Sequence record: OQ108497.1 | DNA from: Escherichia phage EC_OE_11 | DNA: 64,000 nucleotides | Reading direction: 5' to 3' (one strand) | In this document: positions 27,827 to 54,700 of the stretch, one piece after another | Layout of the letters: every line of letters begins with the position of its first letter | Position numbering within the stretch: the first letter of the stretch is position 1 | Position numbers and translations under genes: made by a program | Notes under the pieces: model-generated | What the model was told of the DNA's origin: nothing | Seen by the model: only the letters and a program-made list of their open reading frames with translations | Databases searched by the model: none

Positions 27827-28059
27827 TACACATTCTCCTCTTTTACCAATTCCATCGTTGAACTATCAAAACCATCTTTAGAAGAATAGGTATAGACAGG
27901 ACGTAGTTCTCGCAGGACAGTGAATACATTAGGATCATCTAACCAAGCATCCTGGAGGAGAACATAACGATCTTCATTGTCGTACTGGACAGCAATCATA
28001 GAACCAGACAGTTTGTAAATTTTAATATTCATAATATATTTCTCCTTAAAGTAGACCAC
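27826..28059 (-). CDS. hypothetical protein
   Basis: 77 aa ORF, translationally coupled. Confidence 0.25.
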   Translation of the reverse strand: MVYFKEKYIMNIKIYKLSGSMIAVQYDNEDRYVLLQDAWLDDPNVFTVLRELRPVYTYSSKDGFDSSTMELVKEENV

Positions 28060-29149
28060 GTTTAACAGTTTGAATCATACCATCTTCAAGAGATTGTACT
28101 TCTTGGATGTAATCAATACGAGCAGCACGGGCTTCAGTGTTGATTCGGTTAGTTTCTTCCAACATTTTAACTAAGTTTTCTTGATCGCGACGTAGTGTTT
28201 CAATATCCAATACTTGACGATTAGCAAGTTGTGTAGCTTCAATTTGGTTTTGTGCAGCCAGATCACTACCCATTGCAATAGCAGCATTAAATTCATTCAG
28301 TACATTGTTCTGTGTATCGGCTGCTTTCTTCTGGCGTAGACTTTCAATATACATAGAAAAGTTTGCAGAGTAAGCAGGGATAACATTATTCACAATGTTA
28401 CGTGCTGATCGCATCAAACTTGCAGATACTTTCTGCATACTTTGTACACGTGGCCCCATCTGAACACACAGTAAACGCAAGGCTTTCAGGTCTGCAATAC
28501 GAATTTCAAGCAGATCCATAGTATCACGAGTACGTTGACGCTCTTCTACTTCATTTTCAGGTAGAGTATTAAGGCGAACTTCTTCTTTTTCATAAGTAGC
28601 TGTTAGAAGCTCTATATCCCTGTTTAAGCTAAGAGCATATTTTGCAATAGCCTCTTCTAAACGTTGCAGATATCGTAAAGAATCTTCTTCTTTTTTCAAG
28701 TCTGTTTGGAGTGTCTTTACCAAACCTTCAATACGATTATTGATGGTGTCAAACTCTCCAAACAAATCTTCTTTCATACCTAACACTTTCTTAACTAGCT
28801 TACCTAAACCTTTAGATTGTTTAATAGAATTAGGATCAAGTTGCTTTGCTTGCTTAATAAGTGCAGTTAAACGTTCACTCATTTCATCTCCCTGGGATGA
28901 ACGCTGGTGTTTAAGCACTTCAGCATTAAGGTTACGAAGAGTAAGTCCTGCATCAGCACCAACTTGTTCAATCTCTTCACGAGACATTGGAGGCAGCATT
29001 TGTACAGGTCGTGCAACAGCAGGTGCATATACAGGGCTTGCATCCATAGCACTTGGAGCAAACAAAGACTTACTCTTTTCTGTTGTTGCCGTGAATACAC
29101 TCATTTCAGACGGTTTGCTTTTTACGGCACTGATAAAAGGACTGGACAT
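28046..29149 (-). CDS. TelA-like (toxic anion resistance/KlaB-like) protein
   Basis: 367 aa, mostly helical/coiled-coil, size and composition like the TelA family; within TerD/TerC neighbourhood. Assigned by context and composition, not alignment. Confidence 0.4.
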   Translation of the reverse strand: MSSPFISAVKSKPSEMSVFTATTEKSKSLFAPSAMDASPVYAPAVARPVQMLPPMSREEIEQVGADAGLTLRNLNAEVLKHQRSSQGDEMSERLTALIKQAKQLDPNSIKQSKGLGKLVKKVLGMKEDLFGEFDTINNRIEGLVKTLQTDLKKEEDSLRYLQRLEEAIAKYALSLNRDIELLTATYEKEEVRLNTLPENEVEERQRTRDTMDLLEIRIADLKALRLLCVQMGPRVQSMQKVSASLMRSARNIVNNVIPAYSANFSMYIESLRQKKAADTQNNVLNEFNAAIAMGSDLAAQNQIEATQLANRQVLDIETLRRDQENLVKMLEETNRINTEARAARIDYIQEVQSLEDGMIQTVKRGLL

Positions 29150-29217
29150 TCAATTTCCTCCATATTCTTTAGTAGATGGTGATACCTCTGTACCACCATC
29201 ATAACACAAATTAAGTA

Positions 29218-30069
29218 TTAAACAAACATATCTAAATAATTTGTAGTAATAAATGCTCCATCTGCTTCCAGATTAACATAACCAGTAGCATTAGTGGTTA
29301 AGAAATCCAGATCGAAGGACTCTTTAACACCCCGTACCTCAACACGAGAGATATCGAATACAGGTAGTGTAACAGCCTCTTCGTGCAATACCGTACCTTT
29401 GTAGGTTGCCTTAATGATAAACTTGATATTACCCGTTCCAGCATCATACAAAACACTTTCAAACCCTTTGAGAGTATATTTATCACCAGAAGTGAAGTGC
29501 AAAGTTGCTTTGTTTACAGTACGTTTTTTACGAGGAGTTCCTTTCACACGTTTATGATCACTACGTTTTTTGTATTTAGGAATGAATACAAACGATACAC
29601 TCTCAAGAAAGGTATCAACATCAAGGATTTTAATATCCTCTGTTGCAGCAAATTTTGAAGTCGTTGCATCAAAATGCTTTCCCCTGCGATCATACATAAA
29701 GATATCAAACCGATCTTCTAAATCAAACAAATTATGTATCTTAATTTCAGAATGCTTGCACATTGCAGCAACCTTAAACTCTTCAAAACGTGGGTGTTCT
29801 ACCAGTTCTTCAAGTTTTACACCAAAGACAGTATATGGTTTCGAAGTTTTTTCTGGTGTTGGCATTACAGAAGCATAATCACCGATTGCGCTCTTAAAGC
29901 AAAATTGTTCTTGACCTGTATTTTTACCAACGAATTTACAGTATTCGTCATCGTGCATGCTTTCCTTGGTAGTACCAACAAACTCAAAACCATCTTTATT
30001 CTTCTCAAGAATTTCTTGATTAAAGATCCAACCTTCCAGGCGATACACTTTACCAACTTCTAGTTTCAT
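29218..30069 (-). CDS. hypothetical protein
   Basis: 283 aa ORF between TelA-like and lipoprotein genes. Confidence 0.3.
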   Translation of the reverse strand: MKLEVGKVYRLEGWIFNQEILEKNKDGFEFVGTTKESMHDDEYCKFVGKNTGQEQFCFKSAIGDYASVMPTPEKTSKPYTVFGVKLEELVEHPRFEEFKVAAMCKHSEIKIHNLFDLEDRFDIFMYDRRGKHFDATTSKFAATEDIKILDVDTFLESVSFVFIPKYKKRSDHKRVKGTPRKKRTVNKATLHFTSGDKYTLKGFESVLYDAGTGNIKFIIKATYKGTVLHEEAVTLPVFDISRVEVRGVKESFDLDFLTTNATGYVNLEADGAFITTNYLDMFV

Positions 30070-30104
30070 CTGTTTCTCCTTCTTGTTTAATCTGTATTAA
30101 ATTA

Positions 30105-30695
30105 TTAACGACGACGTGAGCTACTAAAACTACGTTTCGACGAAGAATAACTTTTCGAAGACTTACTATAAGAGCTAATAGGACTTGAGTAAGACTTACG
30201 AGCAGAGTAATCACTATTCACTTTTGTTGTTGATGGGCGTGAATACGTTTGTACACTTTGCTGCTTAATTGTGTTTTGTTTAGTGGTTGTATATGTATTT
30301 ACAGGTTTATCATAAAAACTACGCTTTTGTGTTGTATATGATTTACTGTTAGTTGTAGGAGCAGCATTGTTATTAATAATGGTTGTATTGCTACCACCAT
30401 CTCTATAACCACCACCGCCACTATTACCACTCAACATATGACCAAGAAGCATACCTGTAGCAAATTCACCTACACCAGAAGAACTACTACCGCCTCCTTG
30501 CACAACAACTGTTGAAGGTTGTGCAGGTGCTGCTTGAACAACTTGAGGTGCAGGTTGATTTACATATTGTTCATCTACCATCTGATTTGGTGTTTGTTGG
30601 TAACGTTGATTTTGTACATTTTCAGAATCATCACAACCTACCAGCAATACACTACCTAATACAACTGCAACAATAAAAGATTTAATGTTTTTCAT
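30105..30695 (-). CDS. lipoprotein with Ser/Gln/Tyr-rich low-complexity region
   Basis: Start set at ATG 30695 behind GAGAGGG RBS; signal peptide plus lipobox (SVLLVGC); long Q/S/Y/T-rich tail. Confidence 0.45.
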   Translation of the reverse strand: MKNIKSFIVAVVLGSVLLVGCDDSENVQNQRYQQTPNQMVDEQYVNQPAPQVVQAAPAQPSTVVVQGGGSSSSGVGEFATGMLLGHMLSGNSGGGGYRDGGSNTTIINNNAAPTTNSKSYTTQKRSFYDKPVNTYTTTKQNTIKQQSVQTYSRPSTTKVNSDYSARKSYSSPISSYSKSSKSYSSSKRSFSSSRRR

Positions 30696-30888
30696 TTGTA
30701 ACCCTCTCATTTAAAGTCTCAACACAATTTTTAAAATCCCTAGAGAAACAATACATCTGTTCTCCGTTCCTGTTGATAGTAATTGTATGATTATCAATGT
30801 ATGTTGTCAAGATAAAAATCAAACAAAATAACCCTAAAGCAAAACAAATATTTTCAAACAGAATCCAAAGAACACGTAAAACCACCAT
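30682..30888 (-). CDS. small membrane protein
   Basis: 68 aa with hydrophobic FALGLFCLIFILTTYI segment. Confidence 0.3.
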   Translation of the reverse strand: MVVLRVLWILFENICFALGLFCLIFILTTYIDNHTITINRNGEQMYCFSRDFKNCVETLNERVTNEKH

Positions 30889-30904
30889 CAGATCACCTCA
30901 ACAA

Positions 30905-30922
30905 AGCCCCCGAAGGGGCTTA
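30905..30922 (-). terminator. GC hairpin downstream of TerC-like gene
   Basis: AGCCCC-CGAA-GGGGCT stem-loop. Confidence 0.4.
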
Positions 30923-30927
30923 ATGAA

Positions 30928-31905
30928 TTAAGCAACAGCCTGGTCTTCTTTTTCAGGGAAGATTAAACTTGCAATGACACCCAGCCCCAGAGTACCTAAC
31001 ACAATATACATACTGATCGTCGGATCAATGTGTGCTGGCAGGAAACTCACTTTTGCGTGCAGAGTTTCTGCAAACGGGTGATACATCAGTTTTACACCCA
31101 CAAATACCAGGACTACGATAACTGCTTTCTCCAGATGAACCAAATATTTCAGTGCAACACTAAGGACAAAGAACAGAGCACGTAGACCTAAAATTGCACA
31201 CAGCATTGAAGAAAATACAAGCAGAGGTTCTTGTGTCACTGCAATTACTGCTGGAACAGAGTCTACTGCAAAGATTACGTCAACCATTTCCATTACAAAC
31301 ACACAAACCAGAGCCGGAGTTGCTACACGAACACCATTTTTGATTGTGAAGAACTTCTCACCATCCATCTGATCAGATACAGGGAACAGCTTACGAACAA
31401 TGCGAGTAGCCCAGTGTTTAGAGTAATCAACTTCTGCGTCATTATCTCCAGCGAATACCATTTTAGCTGCACAGAAAAGGATGACCGCACCGAAGAAGAT
31501 ATTAACATACCAGCCCAAACTCAACAAATAAGTGCCTACTGCTACAAACACACCTCGGAAGACAATCGCACCTGCAATACCCCAAAGTAGAATCTTGTGT
31601 TGCAAGTGTGTGCTTTTAATACCAAAACTTGCGAATACTGCCACAAATACTACTAAGTTATCTACAGAAAGAGATTTCTCCAACACATATCCACTCAAGA
31701 ACAAGCTCGCAAAATCAGCACCGTGCTGGAAGTATACAAAACCATAGTAGGCTAATGATACCCCAATCCAGAAAATTGACCAACCAATTGCAGATTTAAA
31801 TGAAATTTCTTTGTTTTCTCTGTGTCCAAAGAAATCAATACAAATCGACAACACTAAAATACCCACTAAAACAACCACATCAATAATTGGGAAACCCAGT
31901 TGCAT
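30928..31905 (-). CDS. TerC-family integral membrane protein
   Basis: 325 aa, multiple TM helices; duplicated TerC signature (LEKSLSVDNLVVF and EMVDVIFAVDSVPAVIAVT). Confidence 0.7.
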   Translation of the reverse strand: MQLGFPIIDVVVLVGILVLSICIDFFGHRENKEISFKSAIGWSIFWIGVSLAYYGFVYFQHGADFASLFLSGYVLEKSLSVDNLVVFVAVFASFGIKSTHLQHKILLWGIAGAIVFRGVFVAVGTYLLSLGWYVNIFFGAVILFCAAKMVFAGDNDAEVDYSKHWATRIVRKLFPVSDQMDGEKFFTIKNGVRVATPALVCVFVMEMVDVIFAVDSVPAVIAVTQEPLLVFSSMLCAILGLRALFFVLSVALKYLVHLEKAVIVVLVFVGVKLMYHPFAETLHAKVSFLPAHIDPTISMYIVLGTLGLGVIASLIFPEKEDQAVA

Positions 31906-31982
31906 TCTTATCTCCTCTTTAATGCGGAGGACAATCCTCCGCTCTATGTCTTATACTATAAACTGTTTTTAAAGAAAGTCAA

Positions 31983-32231
31983 CTAGTTCAGTTCTGTAAT
32001 TTTAAGTTTATCTTCTTTGTTAATGATAGGGAAAGCTACAGCATCACCTACGTCATCAATAAAGCAAATAGCAAGACCACCTTCCACTTTACTAATCTGA
32101 CCCTTAAAGGCGCGATACGGGGCAGGAACTTTATCTCCATCTTCAAGGATAATAGCCTCGTAAACCTTGCCGATAGTACAATCACGAGTGTTTCTAAATT
32201 TTTCAAGCACTTCAACATTTACTTTACGCAT
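31983..32231 (-). CDS. hypothetical protein
   Basis: 82 aa ORF. Confidence 0.3.
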   Translation of the reverse strand: MRKVNVEVLEKFRNTRDCTIGKVYEAIILEDGDKVPAPYRAFKGQISKVEGGLAICFIDDVGDAVAFPIINKEDKLKITELN

Positions 32232-32246
32232 ATAAAAAATCCTCTC

Positions 32247-32453
32247 TTATTTGTTAGATTGAAAGATACCACGAAGTACCGCAAGAATGAACGTCACACA
32301 GACTACACTCCAAAACGTTACAGGAACATGATGCCAGTCTAAACCGATAATGTCAATCATATAGTTGTATGCTAAAAGCAGCAGCCAACTAGGGATTAAC
32401 ACAATCAAAAACACAACAATAAAACAACCTAATACTGCTAAAACACCTGCCAT
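32247..32453 (-). CDS. small membrane protein
   Basis: 68 aa, two hydrophobic helices. Confidence 0.3.
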   Translation of the reverse strand: MAGVLAVLGCFIVVFLIVLIPSWLLLLAYNYMIDIIGLDWHHVPVTFWSVVCVTFILAVLRGIFQSNK

Positions 32454-32462
32454 ACTTTCTCC

Positions 32463-33179
32463 TTATTTCAGTTTGTAAACAATTACATTTAAACCTTTGT
32501 TTACTAGAGTTTCTTCGATCATAAGTTTTACAATATTCCAAGAACCTCCAGCCAAACCACAACCAAGCATTGGTAAACCTACAATTTTACCGCCTGAAGA
32601 TACAACATCGTCTCCCATACTATCTAGCGCATTGTAGATAGCTTCATAATTCAGATCACGCTTACCTTCCTCACGACTACTATAACCATATTGTCCATAT
32701 AAATTATAAATTGTCAAATTGTTTTCTGTATATTTGGTAAACGTACCTAATTTTTTATAATCACCACGTTTAGTGGCACAATCTGCTTTAAACGCACCAG
32801 GCCACTTGCTTTTAATTTTTGGTGCAATACCACTACCCATAGTGCAAAAACAGTTACAGCAGTGTGCTATAGCGTCTATATCGCCTCTCTCGGCTGCTGC
32901 TAAAAGATCACCGTATACCTCAACGATACCTGCTGGATAACTTGTTACAATTTCATCTTCCCAGTACATTTTCTCTACACCACCGATCAGTGCAAAGTTT
33001 TGTGTAATGCGATCATCAATATAGTTAAGACCTGAAACATACACAGCGTATTCATCCTGTGCTGTAATACCTTGCACACGAATTCTTAAGACACCATCTT
33101 TATCTGTTGCTACACGCCCAAAATCTTTTTCTGTAATATTGGTGATAGGATCTCCGAAAGTCATTACTTTATTAGACAT
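32463..33179 (-). CDS. macro-domain-like protein (ADP-ribose binding/processing)
   Basis: Start set at ATG 33179 (MSNKVM), 2 nt after PRTase stop; motif GDLLAAAERGDIDAIAHCCNCFCTMGSGIA resembles the macro-domain N-terminal core (DAIVNAAN ... GGGV). Confidence 0.45.
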   Translation of the reverse strand: MSNKVMTFGDPITNITEKDFGRVATDKDGVLRIRVQGITAQDEYAVYVSGLNYIDDRITQNFALIGGVEKMYWEDEIVTSYPAGIVEVYGDLLAAAERGDIDAIAHCCNCFCTMGSGIAPKIKSKWPGAFKADCATKRGDYKKLGTFTKYTENNLTIYNLYGQYGYSSREEGKRDLNYEAIYNALDSMGDDVVSSGGKIVGLPMLGCGLAGGSWNIVKLMIEETLVNKGLNVIVYKLK

Positions 33180-34029
33180 AATAATCCCCTTTAACATTAG
33201 ATTTGTTGATAATGTTGCTTTCAAAAAATTGACGTAGGAAATCAAAGTTCTCTTTGTATTTTTCAATGTTATTGTAGCCTTCTGCAAGGCAACCAAAGAA
33301 CAGTTGTTCTACATAATACAAAGGAAGCTGTGAAAGTGCAATTTTAAAATCAACTTCGCTTTGACTCATTAGATACTTAATAGGACGAACCAAACATTTA
33401 GCATCAGTTTCTTGCTTAATCATTTTAATAAAAGCTGCCAGGTTATTGATATAGTTGAAGTTAAGTGCAGCTTCGGTGTTGGCTTCTGTACCTTCATACT
33501 TTGCAAAGTACAGGAAAAACGTATCGTTTTCAACACCTTCTTTGTCTAAAATTTCAATAAGTTTTTCTTCGTGTGTTCCTGTAATATTAACATCATCAAT
33601 GAAAATCAGAGTTTTATTACCCCAGAAATCACGATTGATAGAGAAAGTGTCACCATCGATCAAAGCCTTACGATCTTCTTTGCTAAGAAATCCATAATCA
33701 TTGATATAGCTCACTTTACGATGAACGATATCCCACTCCACTGGTTTACCACCTTTGATAGAGATTAGGTAGTTGAGGTGATCTACAAAATGTTCAGATA
33801 ACACTGTAGCTGCATTTTTCACATAGTTATATGGAGATGGAATAACAACAAAACTTTCATTTACCAGTCGTTCTTCATACTTAGAAAAGAAACTTTCAGC
33901 CAGAATGCGCCCCATTCTTTTTGCTGCCTGGTTACTACCAAACTTTAGTTTGGAATAATCTGCAATGTTAAATTTTGCTTCCTTCAGGTTAGTAAAAGTA
34001 TTAGCAAAATGTTGAATTTGATTACGCAT
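33172..34029 (-). CDS. type I phosphoribosyltransferase-like protein
   Basis: 285 aa; PRPP-binding-like motif LIFIDDVNITGTHEE (hydrophobic run, DD, then T-G-T). Confidence 0.5.
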   Translation of the reverse strand: MRNQIQHFANTFTNLKEAKFNIADYSKLKFGSNQAAKRMGRILAESFFSKYEERLVNESFVVIPSPYNYVKNAATVLSEHFVDHLNYLISIKGGKPVEWDIVHRKVSYINDYGFLSKEDRKALIDGDTFSINRDFWGNKTLIFIDDVNITGTHEEKLIEILDKEGVENDTFFLYFAKYEGTEANTEAALNFNYINNLAAFIKMIKQETDAKCLVRPIKYLMSQSEVDFKIALSQLPLYYVEQLFFGCLAEGYNNIEKYKENFDFLRQFFESNIINKSNVKGDYYV

Positions 34030-34696
34030 TAATAAGTTCCTCTTTTTTAAGTTTAGCCAACAAGTTTTCTGGATTAATAATATGACAGAACTTCATCCCT
34101 ATGTCAACAGCTTTTCCATCATAGATCAAACTATCTCCAACGTGTAAGATCTCCTCTGGTGCGAGATCAAACGTTACCATTTCATCAAAAGAGAGTTTAA
34201 AAAACCTAGGATCTGGTTTACACAAGCAAAACTCATCAGAAAAATGCATAAAGTCGAATGGTAATTTTGTCAAGCCAGAATATACAGCTAAGAAACTACC
34301 AGGTACAAAATTGGTATTGCTCTTAATACTCAAAGAATAGGTTGAACTTAGCTCTTCCAACTTCTTGCAAAGTTCAGGGTTTAATGTTGGAGGATGTTTT
34401 ATAAACATTGCTAAACAGTCTCTTTTTAACCCATCCACCTTATCAAGATCAATGTTCAAATGAGCAGAAAGTGTTTCCCAAGCATTTCTAGATGTTCCAC
34501 AAATGCCTTTTTCTGCTTTTAAATCCAAGAGAGTTTTTACCTCTTTATATACGGTAGCTGCTTCTACCTCAGAACAAGAGGCATACTCGGCAATAACCTT
34601 GTTGCGTTCTTCTGCATACAAAGGATTAGCAGTAATAAGAGTATTCCATACATCAAAAGAAATATGCTTAACAGTCATTTTTAATCCTCCGTCCAA
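34022..34696 (-). CDS. HAD-superfamily hydrolase-like protein
   Basis: 224 aa in ORF track (true start probably the internal ATG at MTVKH); motif ISFDVWNTL resembles HAD motif I (DxDxT); C-terminal HVGDSLIYDGK resembles motif IV. Confidence 0.45.
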   Translation of the reverse strand: MDGGLKMTVKHISFDVWNTLITANPLYAEERNKVIAEYASCSEVEAATVYKEVKTLLDLKAEKGICGTSRNAWETLSAHLNIDLDKVDGLKRDCLAMFIKHPPTLNPELCKKLEELSSTYSLSIKSNTNFVPGSFLAVYSGLTKLPFDFMHFSDEFCLCKPDPRFFKLSFDEMVTFDLAPEEILHVGDSLIYDGKAVDIGMKFCHIINPENLLAKLKKEELINA

Positions 34697-51174: not shown

Positions 51175-52347
51175 ATGGTAGCACTAAAATCATGGGAACA
51201 ATATAAAGAAGAATTAATACCCCTTGCTAAAAATCACAATATTCAAATCTTGGGTTATGTTGGTGAATGGAAAGGGAACAAGACTAAACTTAAGCTATCT
51301 TGCCCTAAACATGGAGAGTGGAACACCACGAACATTAATGATTTTAAGAAGGGACGTGGTTGTCCTATCTGTTCTGGTAAGAAGCCGTTAACATGGGAAA
51401 CAGAATTGCCGATCTTGGAAGAGATAGCACAGAAGAGGGGGTATCAGGTGTTAGGGTACGTGGGAGAATGGAAAGGGAATAAAACAAAACTTGATTTGTT
51501 GTGTCATTGTGGTAATAAATGGGATACTACAAGTATTAACAATTTTAAACGTGGTAGCGGTTGTCCACAATGTAAGAGGGAGAGACAAACAATGTCCGAC
51601 GATCAACATATTGCAGATTTCTTTTCTACAGGGGAATTTAAGGAAGGCACTATCTTCACCAATACAGGGAAACGTAACAAGCGTGATGCAGTATGGATGG
51701 TTGAGTGTCCTGTTTGCTCCCATGATGAATATGTTCAAGCAGGTGTTTGTGATGGTAAATTTTACTCTGCAGGACATAACCTTAAACAAGGGTATATTCC
51801 GTGTCGTTGTGGGAACTATCAGTATACAGAAGACCAGATCACCTATAGGGTAAAAAAGGAAGTAGAAGGGAAAGGGTATGTCTGGGTAGATTGGATTACC
51901 AAACCCTCTTCTATAGGTAAGTTTAAATATCTTTGTCTTGTGCATGGTGAGCAGATAGGGAGTGCTCGTAATTTATTAAGCCTCGGTCAAGGTTGTCCAC
52001 AGTGTGCTGGTCATAATCAACAGCAATTATATATTAATATTGTTAAAGATAATGATATTATAGTTGCTCTTAAGTTTGGCATAGCTAAAGATAGTGACAG
52101 GCGATTAAACAATCAAAATAGGCGTAATATGTTTTTTATGGAGCGTATTTGTTTATATGATTTTAGTACAGTGAAACAGTGTAAGGCTGCTGAAAGAGCT
52201 ATAAAGAAAAAACTAAAAACTGGTATTTTAACAGCAAGAGAGTTGAAAGATGGTTATACAGAAACAGTAAGTGTTTCTGATTTGGAAAATCTTCAAAAAA
52301 TTATTACACAATATGGTGGCAAGTTAGTATACAGTAAGGAGGTGTAA
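51175..52347 (+). CDS. zinc-ribbon repeat protein with C-terminal T5orf172/GIY-YIG-like domain
   Basis: 390 aa; two near-identical modules (GYVGEWKGNKTKLxLxC ... GxGCPxC) plus more CxxC pairs; C-terminal LKFGIAKDSDRRL resembles the T5orf172 family. Confidence 0.35.
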   Translation: MVALKSWEQYKEELIPLAKNHNIQILGYVGEWKGNKTKLKLSCPKHGEWNTTNINDFKKGRGCPICSGKKPLTWETELPILEEIAQKRGYQVLGYVGEWKGNKTKLDLLCHCGNKWDTTSINNFKRGSGCPQCKRERQTMSDDQHIADFFSTGEFKEGTIFTNTGKRNKRDAVWMVECPVCSHDEYVQAGVCDGKFYSAGHNLKQGYIPCRCGNYQYTEDQITYRVKKEVEGKGYVWVDWITKPSSIGKFKYLCLVHGEQIGSARNLLSLGQGCPQCAGHNQQQLYINIVKDNDIIVALKFGIAKDSDRRLNNQNRRNMFFMERICLYDFSTVKQCKAAERAIKKKLKTGILTARELKDGYTETVSVSDLENLQKIITQYGGKLVYSKEV

Positions 52348-52899
52348 ATGCGGATTACTGATAAGTATGTGTTCTTCTTCTCGGCAAAAGATGAATTTAG
52401 CAACTGGTATCTATCATCTTTTATTGAACCTTTAGCTCCCAAGTATAATAATTCTATTACAAGTTCTGTTGAATTTACTTGTGTGGAACAATATATGATG
52501 TGGAGAAAAGCATGTTTGTTTTATGATTACAACATTGCATCTTCTATTTTAACCGGAGATCTAAGATATACAGGAGAAAAAGAACAGGCATATTATAAGC
52601 GACTAGGTAGATTAGTTAAAGATTACGATGAAGCTACTTGGACTTCTTTACGGGAGAAGATTGTCAAGCGTGGTTTGTATCTTAAATACACACAAAATGA
52701 AGATCTCAAAAATAAACTTATAGCTTACGCAGATAAGGAGTTTGTAGAGGCAAGTCCTTATGATTCTATTTATGGTATCAAAATGGGGATGTGGGATCGG
52801 GACGTGGAAAATAAGGATTGTTGGAAAGGACAAAATCTTTTAGGAAAATGGCATACAGACCTTGCTGTTTATCTAAAATCACAATCTGATATTTCCTGA
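52348..52899 (+). CDS. NADAR-domain protein (YbiA-like, DUF1768)
   Basis: 183 aa; motifs FFFSAKDEFSNWY, EQYMMWRKA, LGR and YDSIYGI match conserved NADAR blocks (compare E. coli YbiA FYS ... FSNF, EHYFQAQKF). Confidence 0.65.
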   Translation: MRITDKYVFFFSAKDEFSNWYLSSFIEPLAPKYNNSITSSVEFTCVEQYMMWRKACLFYDYNIASSILTGDLRYTGEKEQAYYKRLGRLVKDYDEATWTSLREKIVKRGLYLKYTQNEDLKNKLIAYADKEFVEASPYDSIYGIKMGMWDRDVENKDCWKGQNLLGKWHTDLAVYLKSQSDIS

Positions 52900-53110
52900 T
52901 ATTTTGAAAATTTTTACTTTTATAAAAAGGGGTGTGGGTTTCATGTACGGAAATCCACCCTCTGAATAATATATCCAGAGTAAATATTATTCTGTACTCT
53001 GTTAATAAAGTATTTAATTTGTTTGTTGGACTATGGTATCTGATCTTTAAAAGGCATACTATCTCTTAACTACTATTTATAACAGAACAGTAAAATCATT
53101 TTTATAAAAA

Positions 53111-53320
53111 GGACAAAATTATTTAAAGTTTTTACAGATTTTTGGATACAAATTTTGAAAATGAAAAGTTCAAGTTTGGTCAAAATTATTTAAAGTTTTT
53201 GTACGTATTTCTATCCAGATTTTGAAAATGAAAACTTCAATTTTTTAAAAATTCCCCAGTTTATTTAAAGTTTTTTTGCCTTTTTCCGTAGAAAAATCAA
53301 AAATGAAAAGTTCAATTTCG
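53111..53320. repeat. three tandem ~70 bp AT-rich direct repeats (iteron-like)
   Basis: Each unit has ATTATTTAAAGTTTTT (at about 53118, 53184, 53260) and TTTGAAAATGAAAAGTTCAA (at about 53152, 53220, 53296); no ORF across 52900-53340. Confidence 0.6.
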
Positions 53321-53335
53321 TGTTTTTATAGGTGT

Positions 53336-53460
53336 GCGTATGATAATCATTCTCATTTGTAAATGAGAATCATTATCATTTAATTATGTAAGTGATAATC
53401 ATTCTCAGTAAGAGAATGAGAATCATTAGCAAATGAGAATTTTTCTCATTTAGAGAATAA
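53336..53460. promoter_or_regulatory. cluster of Fur-box-like palindromic operator sites
   Basis: TGATAATCATTCTCATT, AATGAGAATCATTATCATT, GTGATAATCATTCTCA, GAATGAGAATCATTAGC and the perfect palindrome AAATGAGAATTTTTCTCATTT; close to the enterobacterial Fur consensus GATAATGATAATCATTATC. Confidence 0.45.
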
Positions 53461-53684
53461 CGCGCAGGGGTGGTGTTTGTCTCGCGCTCCCGTGTCCCTC
53501 GCCATACAATAAGAATAGCATAACCAACAACAAAAGCAAGCGATTATTTTTATCTTTACATTTCTTTACAAATTTATTTTAGACGAGCTACCGGCGATCA
53601 ACCTTCCAACCAGTGCCCCTGGTATGTTAGCCCCGCCTTTACGCCGTGGGGGTGGCGCTTCCTCTTCTGTATGTAAAACAGTAT

Positions 53685-53724
53685 AAGCCCGATCCCTGGG
53701 CTTGTCAAGATTATTTTTTGTTTT
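53685..53724 (+). terminator. candidate rho-independent terminator in GC-rich island
   Basis: AAGCCCGATCCCTGGGCTT hairpin followed by TTATTTTTTGTTTT. Confidence 0.35.
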
Positions 53725-54087
53725 CTTGCCAGGAAAGGACACCTAACCAAAAATACATATCGCCCCGCGCCCCTGGCGGGATCTTGCTTTCCCCGCCGCC
53801 ACTGCAAGCCCATAAATAACCATCAGCGAACGGATCAAAATGTTCTATCTCTTCCACCTTATGATCGCCCAGGTTGAGAACGGTTTCAACCTTTAAGCCC
53901 GTTGCGCTTGCTACCTGGTGCACCGTGCCGCCTTGCCAGCCCAATGAGTGCATGAGATGTAAAGGAGTATTTGTCATGGTATCGCCCTTTCTTTGATGTG
54001 CGCCCTGGTTGGCGCGGTAGAAAGATAATAGCCGTTTCCTTTATAGATAGCAAGCAAAAAGAAATGAAAAAAAGATTAAAAAATGGT

Positions 54088-54116
54088 TGACGTTCCTCAC
54101 CTGGTAGCGTAGTATT
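54088..54116 (+). promoter_or_regulatory. sigma70-like promoter
   Basis: TTGACG - 17 nt - TAGTAT. Confidence 0.4.
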
Positions 54117-54242
54117 CATCTTGTCGAGGGGGGCAAGGCACAACGACAATAAACAATAGGCGGGTGCAATGCAGGACGGGCAAAGGTGAGGATCTCCACA
54201 ATCCACCGTCACAATAACATTACTTATAAAAGGTTGATAACG

Positions 54243-54338
54243 ATGATCAAGAAAGAAAACAGCTTGACGGTTGGAACGATTAACGCTATCATTCTAGCCG
54301 TTCCATTTTGGATTGTAGTAGCGGTTGTTATTTTCTAA
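54243..54338 (+). CDS. small hydrophobic peptide (31 aa)
   Basis: MIKKENSLTVGTINAIILAVPFWIVVAVVIF; AAAAGG upstream; about 120 nt structured leader from promoter at 54088. Confidence 0.3.
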   Translation: MIKKENSLTVGTINAIILAVPFWIVVAVVIF

Positions 54339-54347
54339 AAAATATTC

Positions 54348-54405
54348 TTGACAACGTTTTTTAATCTGATAAGATGTATCACATAGGGCGGCAATAGTGC
54401 CGCTC
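54348..54405 (+). promoter_or_regulatory. early promoter with leader hairpin
   Basis: TTGACA (54348) - 16/17 nt - TAAGAT, then CATAGGGCGGCAATAGTGCCGC hairpin about 25 nt before ATG. Confidence 0.5.
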
Positions 54406-54427
54406 ATAACAGAAGAGAGAAATAATC

Positions 54428-54700
54428 ATGGCATCATATAGCGCATCAATGATCGTAACGGGCATGACTGGTAAACCTATGCGCGGTGGCGGATCTTTCG
54501 CTAACATCAATATTGATGGGCGTTTATCCCTGGATGCAGCGATCACCGTGGCACGGGAAACATTTAAAAAAGAATGTAATTTCAATAAACAAGATTATCT
54601 CGGCTTCGTTATTGAAAAAACCGCGCGCTTTGTTGATTATAAAAGCCCGAAAATGATCGACACTACACTAAAAGCGCAAGATGTAGCATTTTTGCTTTAA
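54428..54700 (+). CDS. hypothetical early protein
   Basis: 90 aa ORF behind promoter-hairpin and AGAAGAGAGA RBS. Confidence 0.4.
   Translation: MASYSASMIVTGMTGKPMRGGGSFANINIDGRLSLDAAITVARETFKKECNFNKQDYLGFVIEKTARFVDYKSPKMIDTTLKAQDVAFLL

Follow-up and report, generated by a model that had tools for sequence, protein, structure and literature searches.

The window, by which we mean the whole 64-kb stretch of DNA that was analysed, derives from a lytic phi92-like phage of E. coli and carries a gene for a stand-alone NADAR protein on its plus strand. The gene follows directly on a gene for an endonuclease-like protein and is itself followed by about 1.5 kb (52900-54400) of mostly non-coding DNA, which holds several unannotated conserved elements. 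The locus contains the following features:

51175-52347, plus strand: endonuclease-like gene with three CapR repeats and a T5orf172 domain
52336-52343, plus strand: Shine-Dalgarno sequence AAGGAGGT of the NADAR gene, read from the sequence
52348-52899, plus strand: adfN-type gene, an ORF from ATG to TGA coding for a 183-amino acid stand-alone NADAR, predicted DNA ADP-ribosylglycohydrolase
53098-53318: three AT-rich direct repeats of 67-75 bp with a GC content of about 21-25%, directly downstream of the NADAR gene
53338-53452: four overlapping Fur-box-like palindromes, for instance TGATAATCATTCTCA and TGAGAATCATTATCA
53455-53720, minus strand: candidate unannotated structured RNA with its core at 53582-53671, proposed from conservation and covariation
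53708-53680, minus strand: sigma-70 promoter, TTGACA-17-TATACT, with an A-tract UP element
53711-53977, minus strand: small ORF of 88 amino acids, a CDS also in phages Bas60-62 and ESCO13

The TAA stop codon of the upstream gene (52345-52347) abuts the ATG of the NADAR gene, and the two genes are therefore probably co-transcribed and translationally coupled. The upstream product matches the PHROG 'endonuclease' family, and its gene varies in length between related phages, with 1404 nt in Bas60, 978 nt in Bas61 and 1173 nt in both Bas62 and the window, which suggests either variation in repeat number or a mobile endonuclease-like gene. With this gene on one side and the non-coding region on the other, the NADAR gene is an orphan that lacks a DarT neighbour. 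No tRNA or tmRNA genes were found in the window.

The preliminary description of this DNA had placed an ORF with the conserved NADAR (YbiA-like) blocks at 52348-52899, and both the boundaries of the ORF and the family proved to be exact. The protein matches Pfam NADAR (PF08719) over residues 13 to 168 with an E-value of 2.3e-36 and 126 bits, compared to a cut-off of 35.1, a match far beyond chance, and it also matches PHROG 1017 (4.8e-50). It passes the cut-off of the YbiA-type NCBIfam model TIGR02464 (109.8 bits, cut-off 73.7) and stays below that of NF053876, the model of the DS-32 NADAR anti-phage protein (26.1 bits, cut-off 240). PADLOC returned a candidate-family match only, PDC-M42C. An AlphaFold2 model, for which an alignment of 50 homologues served as input, shows the NADAR alpha+beta fold with a mean pLDDT of 96.4 and a pTM of 0.91. 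When this model was compared with the PDB using Foldseek, significant fold matches were limited to two structures, 8BAU, which is the NADAR of Phytophthora nicotianae (PnNADAR) in complex with ADP-ribose (TM 0.78), and 2B3W, which is E. coli YbiA (TM 0.64), and a search of the PDB with a profile of the clade ranked them likewise, with E-values of 1.3e-34 and 6e-17, respectively. No DarG1-NADAR structure was matched by the sequence search (E<=0.01) or by the clade profile (E<=1).

The phage is closely related to members of the BASEL collection. [quoted passage not shown] Bas60-62 are assigned to the Vequintavirinae by Johannesman et al. (PMC11825919) and to the Stephanstirmvirinae in GenBank. 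A tblastn search with the NADAR protein retrieved 716 phage records: 55 with at least 95% identity, which are Justusliebigvirus, a few with 56-60% identity (Phapecoctavirus and one Klebsiella relative), and the remainder below 60%, in many myoviruses. Throughout Justusliebigvirus and Phapecoctavirus, the position of the gene is conserved, and the Phapecoctavirus ESCO13 has the gene order of the window, namely an AAA ATPase, an endonuclease-like gene, the NADAR gene, a long gap and a small minus-strand ORF, which argues for vertical inheritance of the NADAR within the subfamily. The orthologues of Bas60, Bas61 and Bas62 are labelled 'putative YbiA-like N-glycosidase' in GenBank; elsewhere, the gene is mostly a 'hypothetical protein' and in some relatives a 'GTP cyclohydrolase II'. 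Several records that are nearly identical to these E. coli phages bear the name 'Campylobacter phage' (for instance A150, with 96% identity across the non-coding element), and another, PsgM04F, bears the name 'Pseudomonas phage', which suggests that their host labels are doubtful.

To identify the residues of the putative active site, the protein was aligned to 8BAU with HMMER and residue roles were taken from Schuller et al. 2023 (PMC11543638). The chain index of 8BAU is offset by two relative to the numbering of that study, a shift that agrees with each of the nine residues named there and listed here. The PnNADAR residues and their equivalents in the phage protein are:

PnNADAR E43: E47 in the phage protein
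PnNADAR K50: K54 in the phage protein
PnNADAR K75: K84 in the phage protein
PnNADAR R79: R88 in the phage protein
PnNADAR Y84: Y93 in the phage protein
PnNADAR W89: W98 in the phage protein
PnNADAR R93: R102 in the phage protein
PnNADAR E125: E134 in the phage protein
PnNADAR D130: D139 in the phage protein

Thus, every one of the nine listed PnNADAR residues that contact ADP-ribose or are needed according to mutagenesis has an equivalent in the phage protein, and six of these equivalents (E47, K54, K84, W98, E134 and D139) are invariant in the alignment of 50 homologues. The positions of E47, K54 and E134 are taken by E88, K95 and D171 in DarG1 of E. coli C7, and PnNADAR K75 corresponds to K115 of E. 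coli C7, which is needed for rescue from DarT1 in vivo (PMC11543638).

These residues help to place the protein among the known NADARs. PnNADAR, with which it shares 28% sequence identity and all ADP-ribose-binding residues, is its closest relative of solved structure; however, PnNADAR is eukaryotic, and the phage protein has additional short insertions at around residues 27-40 and 69-80 as well as a short C-terminal tail. With DarG1, the antitoxin of DarTG1 studied in E. coli C7 and G. lovleyi (Schuller et al. 2023), it shares fold and chemistry, including the equivalents of E88, K95 and K115. DarG1, however, possesses an N-terminal extension and a catalytic aspartate, D171, whereas the phage protein has the glutamate of the general type, E134, and lacks the extension, as is evident from the position of its catalytic Glu/Lys pair at residues 47/54 compared to 88/95 in E. 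coli C7. A DarG1-type antitoxin was therefore rejected: DarT is missing from the neighbouring genes, the extension is absent, the catalytic residue is Glu rather than Asp, and DarG1 structures remained unmatched at E<=1. AdfN^T4 (T4 gp30.3) of the T-even clade is likewise an orphan phage NADAR, which takes ADP-ribose off guanine and thus overcomes DarTG1. In this clade, the conserved glutamate (E125 in PnNADAR) is replaced by a histidine, whereas the protein described here retains it as E134, and a T4-type 'phage NADAR' was ruled out on this ground. E. coli YbiA has the NADAR fold in common with the phage protein but is more distant than PnNADAR, both in fold and in profile E-value.

The function of a nearly identical protein has already been investigated. 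Johannesman et al. (Nat Commun 2025; PMC11825919) named the NADAR of Bas60 AdfN^Bas60, and the protein of the window is 98-99% identical to the NADARs of Bas60 (PaulScherrer), Bas61 (EmilieFrey) and Bas62 (JohannJBalmer) over all 183 residues, with the same locus, phage genus and flanking genes. It differs from each of these alleles by two or three substitutions at positions 62, 96 and 178, and from Bas60 by N62S, A96D and S178T only; none of them affects a predicted active-site residue. AdfN^Bas60 neutralizes the toxicity of DarT1 in uninfected E. coli and brings three unrelated phages, RB69, T5 and Bas25, back to full titre on hosts carrying DarTG1, whereas on DarTG2, which is specific for thymine, it fails to rescue T5 (PMC11825919). 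In the discussion of the same study, the Bas60 and Bas32 representatives are said to have DNA ADP-ribosylglycohydrolase activity, and the published tree groups AdfN^Bas60 with bacterial NADARs that are neither YbiA-like nor linked to DarT and suggests that AdfN^T4 and AdfN^Bas60 were acquired independently. The two also differ in their requirements, since the T4 clade needs the context of a T-even infection for full activity, whereas AdfN^Bas60 works alone in uninfected cells. DarG1 and other NADARs hydrolyse the bond between ADP-ribose and the N2 of guanine (PMC11125620, PMC11543638).

Taken together, the gene very probably codes for an orphan NADAR of the AdfN type, which reverses DarT1-dependent guanine ADP-ribosylation in a lytic E. 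coli Justusliebigvirus. Infection triggers the DarTG1 system of the host, whose toxin DarT1 then ADP-ribosylates the N2 of guanine in phage DNA, thereby blocking replication. The phage NADAR would cut the N-glycosidic bond between guanine and ADP-ribose and so restore replicable DNA; its target would be the product of the toxin rather than DarT1 itself, and other phage factors would not be needed. The published tests were performed by ectopic expression, and the strain list of that study contains T4 knock-outs and none of Bas60-62 (PMC11825919), so that the role of the gene in the native phage is something we infer. The allele of the window is likewise expected, by its likeness to AdfN^Bas60, to act in the same way and to have the same role in its own phage. 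The preliminary description had proposed that the gene removes ADP-ribose from guanine and thereby counters DarT toxins, which is borne out by the neutralization of DarT1 and the rescue of phages on DarTG1 by AdfN^Bas60 (PMC11825919); the idea was thus correct, but it is not new. Its further suggestion of a role against NAD-based immunity found no support, as the tested activity is specific to defence by guanine ADP-ribosylation.

Reversal of DarT1 modification could also be one activity among several, with other ADP-ribose adducts as the main natural targets of the enzyme. Such adducts might be guanine or cytosine modified by toxins that resemble pierisin/ScARP or YarT; RNA carrying ADP-ribose and small signalling molecules derived from ADP-ribose are further candidates. 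The profile of the clade is indeed nearest to the general NADAR type, with 8BAU ahead of YbiA and DarG1 unmatched, and the glutamate at the position of E125 is retained. Enzymes of the NADAR and YbiA types also strip ADP-ribose from cytidine in vitro, in DNA as well as in RNA, which DarG1 and the T4 NADAR do not (PMC12945103), so that DarT1-modified DNA need not be the sole or main substrate of an enzyme of the general type, and Iyer et al. predicted soluble ADP-ribose derivatives as substrates of phage NADARs. However, the functional data on the orthologue of this protein concern DarT1 only (PMC11825919), and no E. coli defence acting by cytosine ADP-ribosylation was found in the literature searched; we therefore consider it improbable that other adducts are the main targets. 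A YbiA-like N-glycosidase that acts on reactive intermediates of the riboflavin pathway would give the gene an auxiliary role in metabolism instead of one in counter-defence. The score against TIGR02464, the GenBank labels 'putative YbiA-like N-glycosidase' and 'GTP cyclohydrolase II' and the second-best fold match to 2B3W point in this direction; however, E. coli YbiA gives no protection from DarT1 in vivo (PMC11125620), whereas AdfN^Bas60 does (PMC11825919), sequence and fold are nearer to PnNADAR than to YbiA, and AdfN^Bas60 falls among non-YbiA bacterial NADARs in the published tree. Moreover, riboflavin genes are absent nearby, as is the LexA-operon context from the phage, and a metabolic role of this kind is very unlikely. 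Binding of ADP-ribose or of a defence protein without catalysis, for which a phage NADAR reported to inhibit Retron-Eco1 non-enzymatically provides a precedent (Carabias 2024, cited by Johannesman et al.), is the least probable explanation of all, given the full and invariant catalytic set, the loss of most rescue in catalytic mutants of AdfN^T4 and the glycohydrolase activity stated for the Bas60 and Bas32 representatives.

The reversal of guanine ADP-ribosylation might not be the sole activity of this kind in the phage. A separate macro-domain protein at 32463-33179 had been pointed out as a possible partner in counter-defence, and this gene is real and lies on the minus strand, where it is part of a Ter-type gene set (28049-34696) carried by this lytic phage:

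28049-29149, minus strand: TelA
30931-31905, minus strand: TerC
32463-33179, minus strand: 238-amino acid protein with a macrodomain of the TARG1/SCO6735/DarG class (residues ~85-237), candidate companion of the NADAR
33175-34029, minus strand: ComF-like phosphoribosyltransferase (PRTase_3, 1.5e-41), which overlaps the macrodomain gene
34025-34696, minus strand: HAD hydrolase, which precedes the phosphoribosyltransferase gene

The product of the macrodomain gene matches Pfam Macro with an E-value of 1.9e-7 and 31.5 bits (cut-off 22) and the DarG model of PADLOC with 5.7e-14. Its closest matches in the PDB are Streptomyces SCO6735 (5E3B, 2e-15), BT1257 and human TARG1 (3e-10), the macrodomain of DarG (5M31) being a more distant match (7e-4), and its N-terminal ~85 amino acids are confined to close relatives in this phage group. 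SCO6735, TARG1 and DarG2 are listed as enzymes that reverse thymine ADP-ribosylation (PMC12945103). With T4 Tk.4, which was named AdfM and is required for growth of T4 on DarTG2 (preprint 10.1101/2025.11.20.689424), the macrodomain shares 30% sequence identity (E 9e-18), a homology that favours the proposed partnership. The location of the gene in a cluster with phosphoribosyltransferase, HAD, TerC and TelA genes, however, makes a role as companion less certain. Anantharaman, Iyer and Aravind (2012) reportedly described Ter-associated sets of such composition, which are linked to the synthesis of a phosphoribosyl-derived metabolite. It is plausible, judging from its homologies, that the macrodomain protein acts as a second de-ADP-ribosylating enzyme beside the NADAR. 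The published NAD+ pathway NARP3 was considered for the phosphoribosyltransferase and macrodomain genes and rejected, as NARP3 consists of a PnuC-like transporter and a NadR-like enzyme.

The region downstream of the NADAR gene deserves a description of its own. A few related records label the direct repeats at 53098-53318 just as 'repeat_region'; they might serve as iterons, as an unwinding element or as several promoters. A replication origin at the repeats was considered and found no support, because the cumulative GC skew reaches its minimum at ~48 kb, at a switch in gene orientation, and not near 53.3 kb. The repeats are followed by the Fur-box-like palindromes. The motif TGATAATNATTATCA, which we take to be the 7-1-7 Fur consensus, occurs with up to two mismatches at five sites in the 64 kb, where 0.94 would be expected; a stretch of 91 bp (53341-53431) holds four of these sites, and the fifth lies at 54235-54249. 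The palindrome AATGAGAATCATTCTCATT is kept at the same place in the Phapecoctavirus ESCO13, in Klebsiella phage 05F01 and in Vequintavirinae. Phage transcription under the control of iron and Fur, or titration of Fur, are possible functions of this cluster. When the literature on these groups of phages was searched for Fur boxes, only an unrelated mention of the lambda sit operons came up. Smaller minus-strand ORFs are present in Vequintavirinae at the position of the 88-amino acid ORF. The stretch from 53450 to 54200 has a GC content of 45-53%, compared to 32-40% in its flanks; a megablast search of E. coli genomes with 53300-54400 gave no match, and this GC-richer intergenic stretch is thus not a recent capture from the host.

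Sequences similar to 53330-53720 were found in 252 phage records, and those examined span the Stephanstirmvirinae and Vequintavirinae. The position of the minus-strand sigma-70 promoter is conserved while the sequence of its spacer varies, and indels in the conserved core exclude that it is coding. An RNA structure was set by hand and then counted on 22 distinct sequences, in which 94% of cells are paired. Compensatory changes occur at four pairs of a hairpin, five pairs are changed on both sides, and a small pseudoknot may be formed by CGCC/GGCG and CCCC/GGGG. The covariation score of 0.151 lies well above all slid controls and compares to 0.056 in shuffles, none of 500 of which reached 0.151. 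RNAalifold gave a weak consensus on the raw MAFFT alignment, and single-sequence folding of the conserved region was no stabler than shuffles on either strand (z -0.23 and +1.23). No Rfam family reached its gathering score over the whole window, and a permissive Rfam scan of 53250-54450 produced chance miRNA-like matches on the palindromes only. The conserved element is probably a non-coding RNA transcribed from the minus strand, at the far end of which lies an element that is possibly under the control of Fur. An alternative to an RNA is an origin-type arrangement of a promoter and an unwinding element, which finds no support in the GC skew.

The scientific gain from the NADAR gene itself is small, because its function has already been demonstrated; the case nevertheless illustrates that a reading of sequence alone is able to pick a genuine counter-defence gene. 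Most public records of the phage group retain the labels 'hypothetical protein', 'YbiA-like N-glycosidase' or 'GTP cyclohydrolase II' despite the published function. For phi92-like phages and other Justusliebigvirus considered as candidates for phage therapy, the gene predicts resistance to hosts that carry DarTG1. It is tempting to speculate, even if we regard it as rather unlikely, that the Glu-type stand-alone AdfN clade acts as a broad de-ADP-ribosylase of nucleic acids, which removes ADP-ribose from guanine and cytosine in DNA and RNA irrespective of the toxin, and that it forms, together with the AdfM-like macrodomain, a two-enzyme kit of phi92-like phages against all known base-ADP-ribosylating defences. 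If this were true, the breadth of the two enzymes could add to the unusually broad host range of phi92-like phages.
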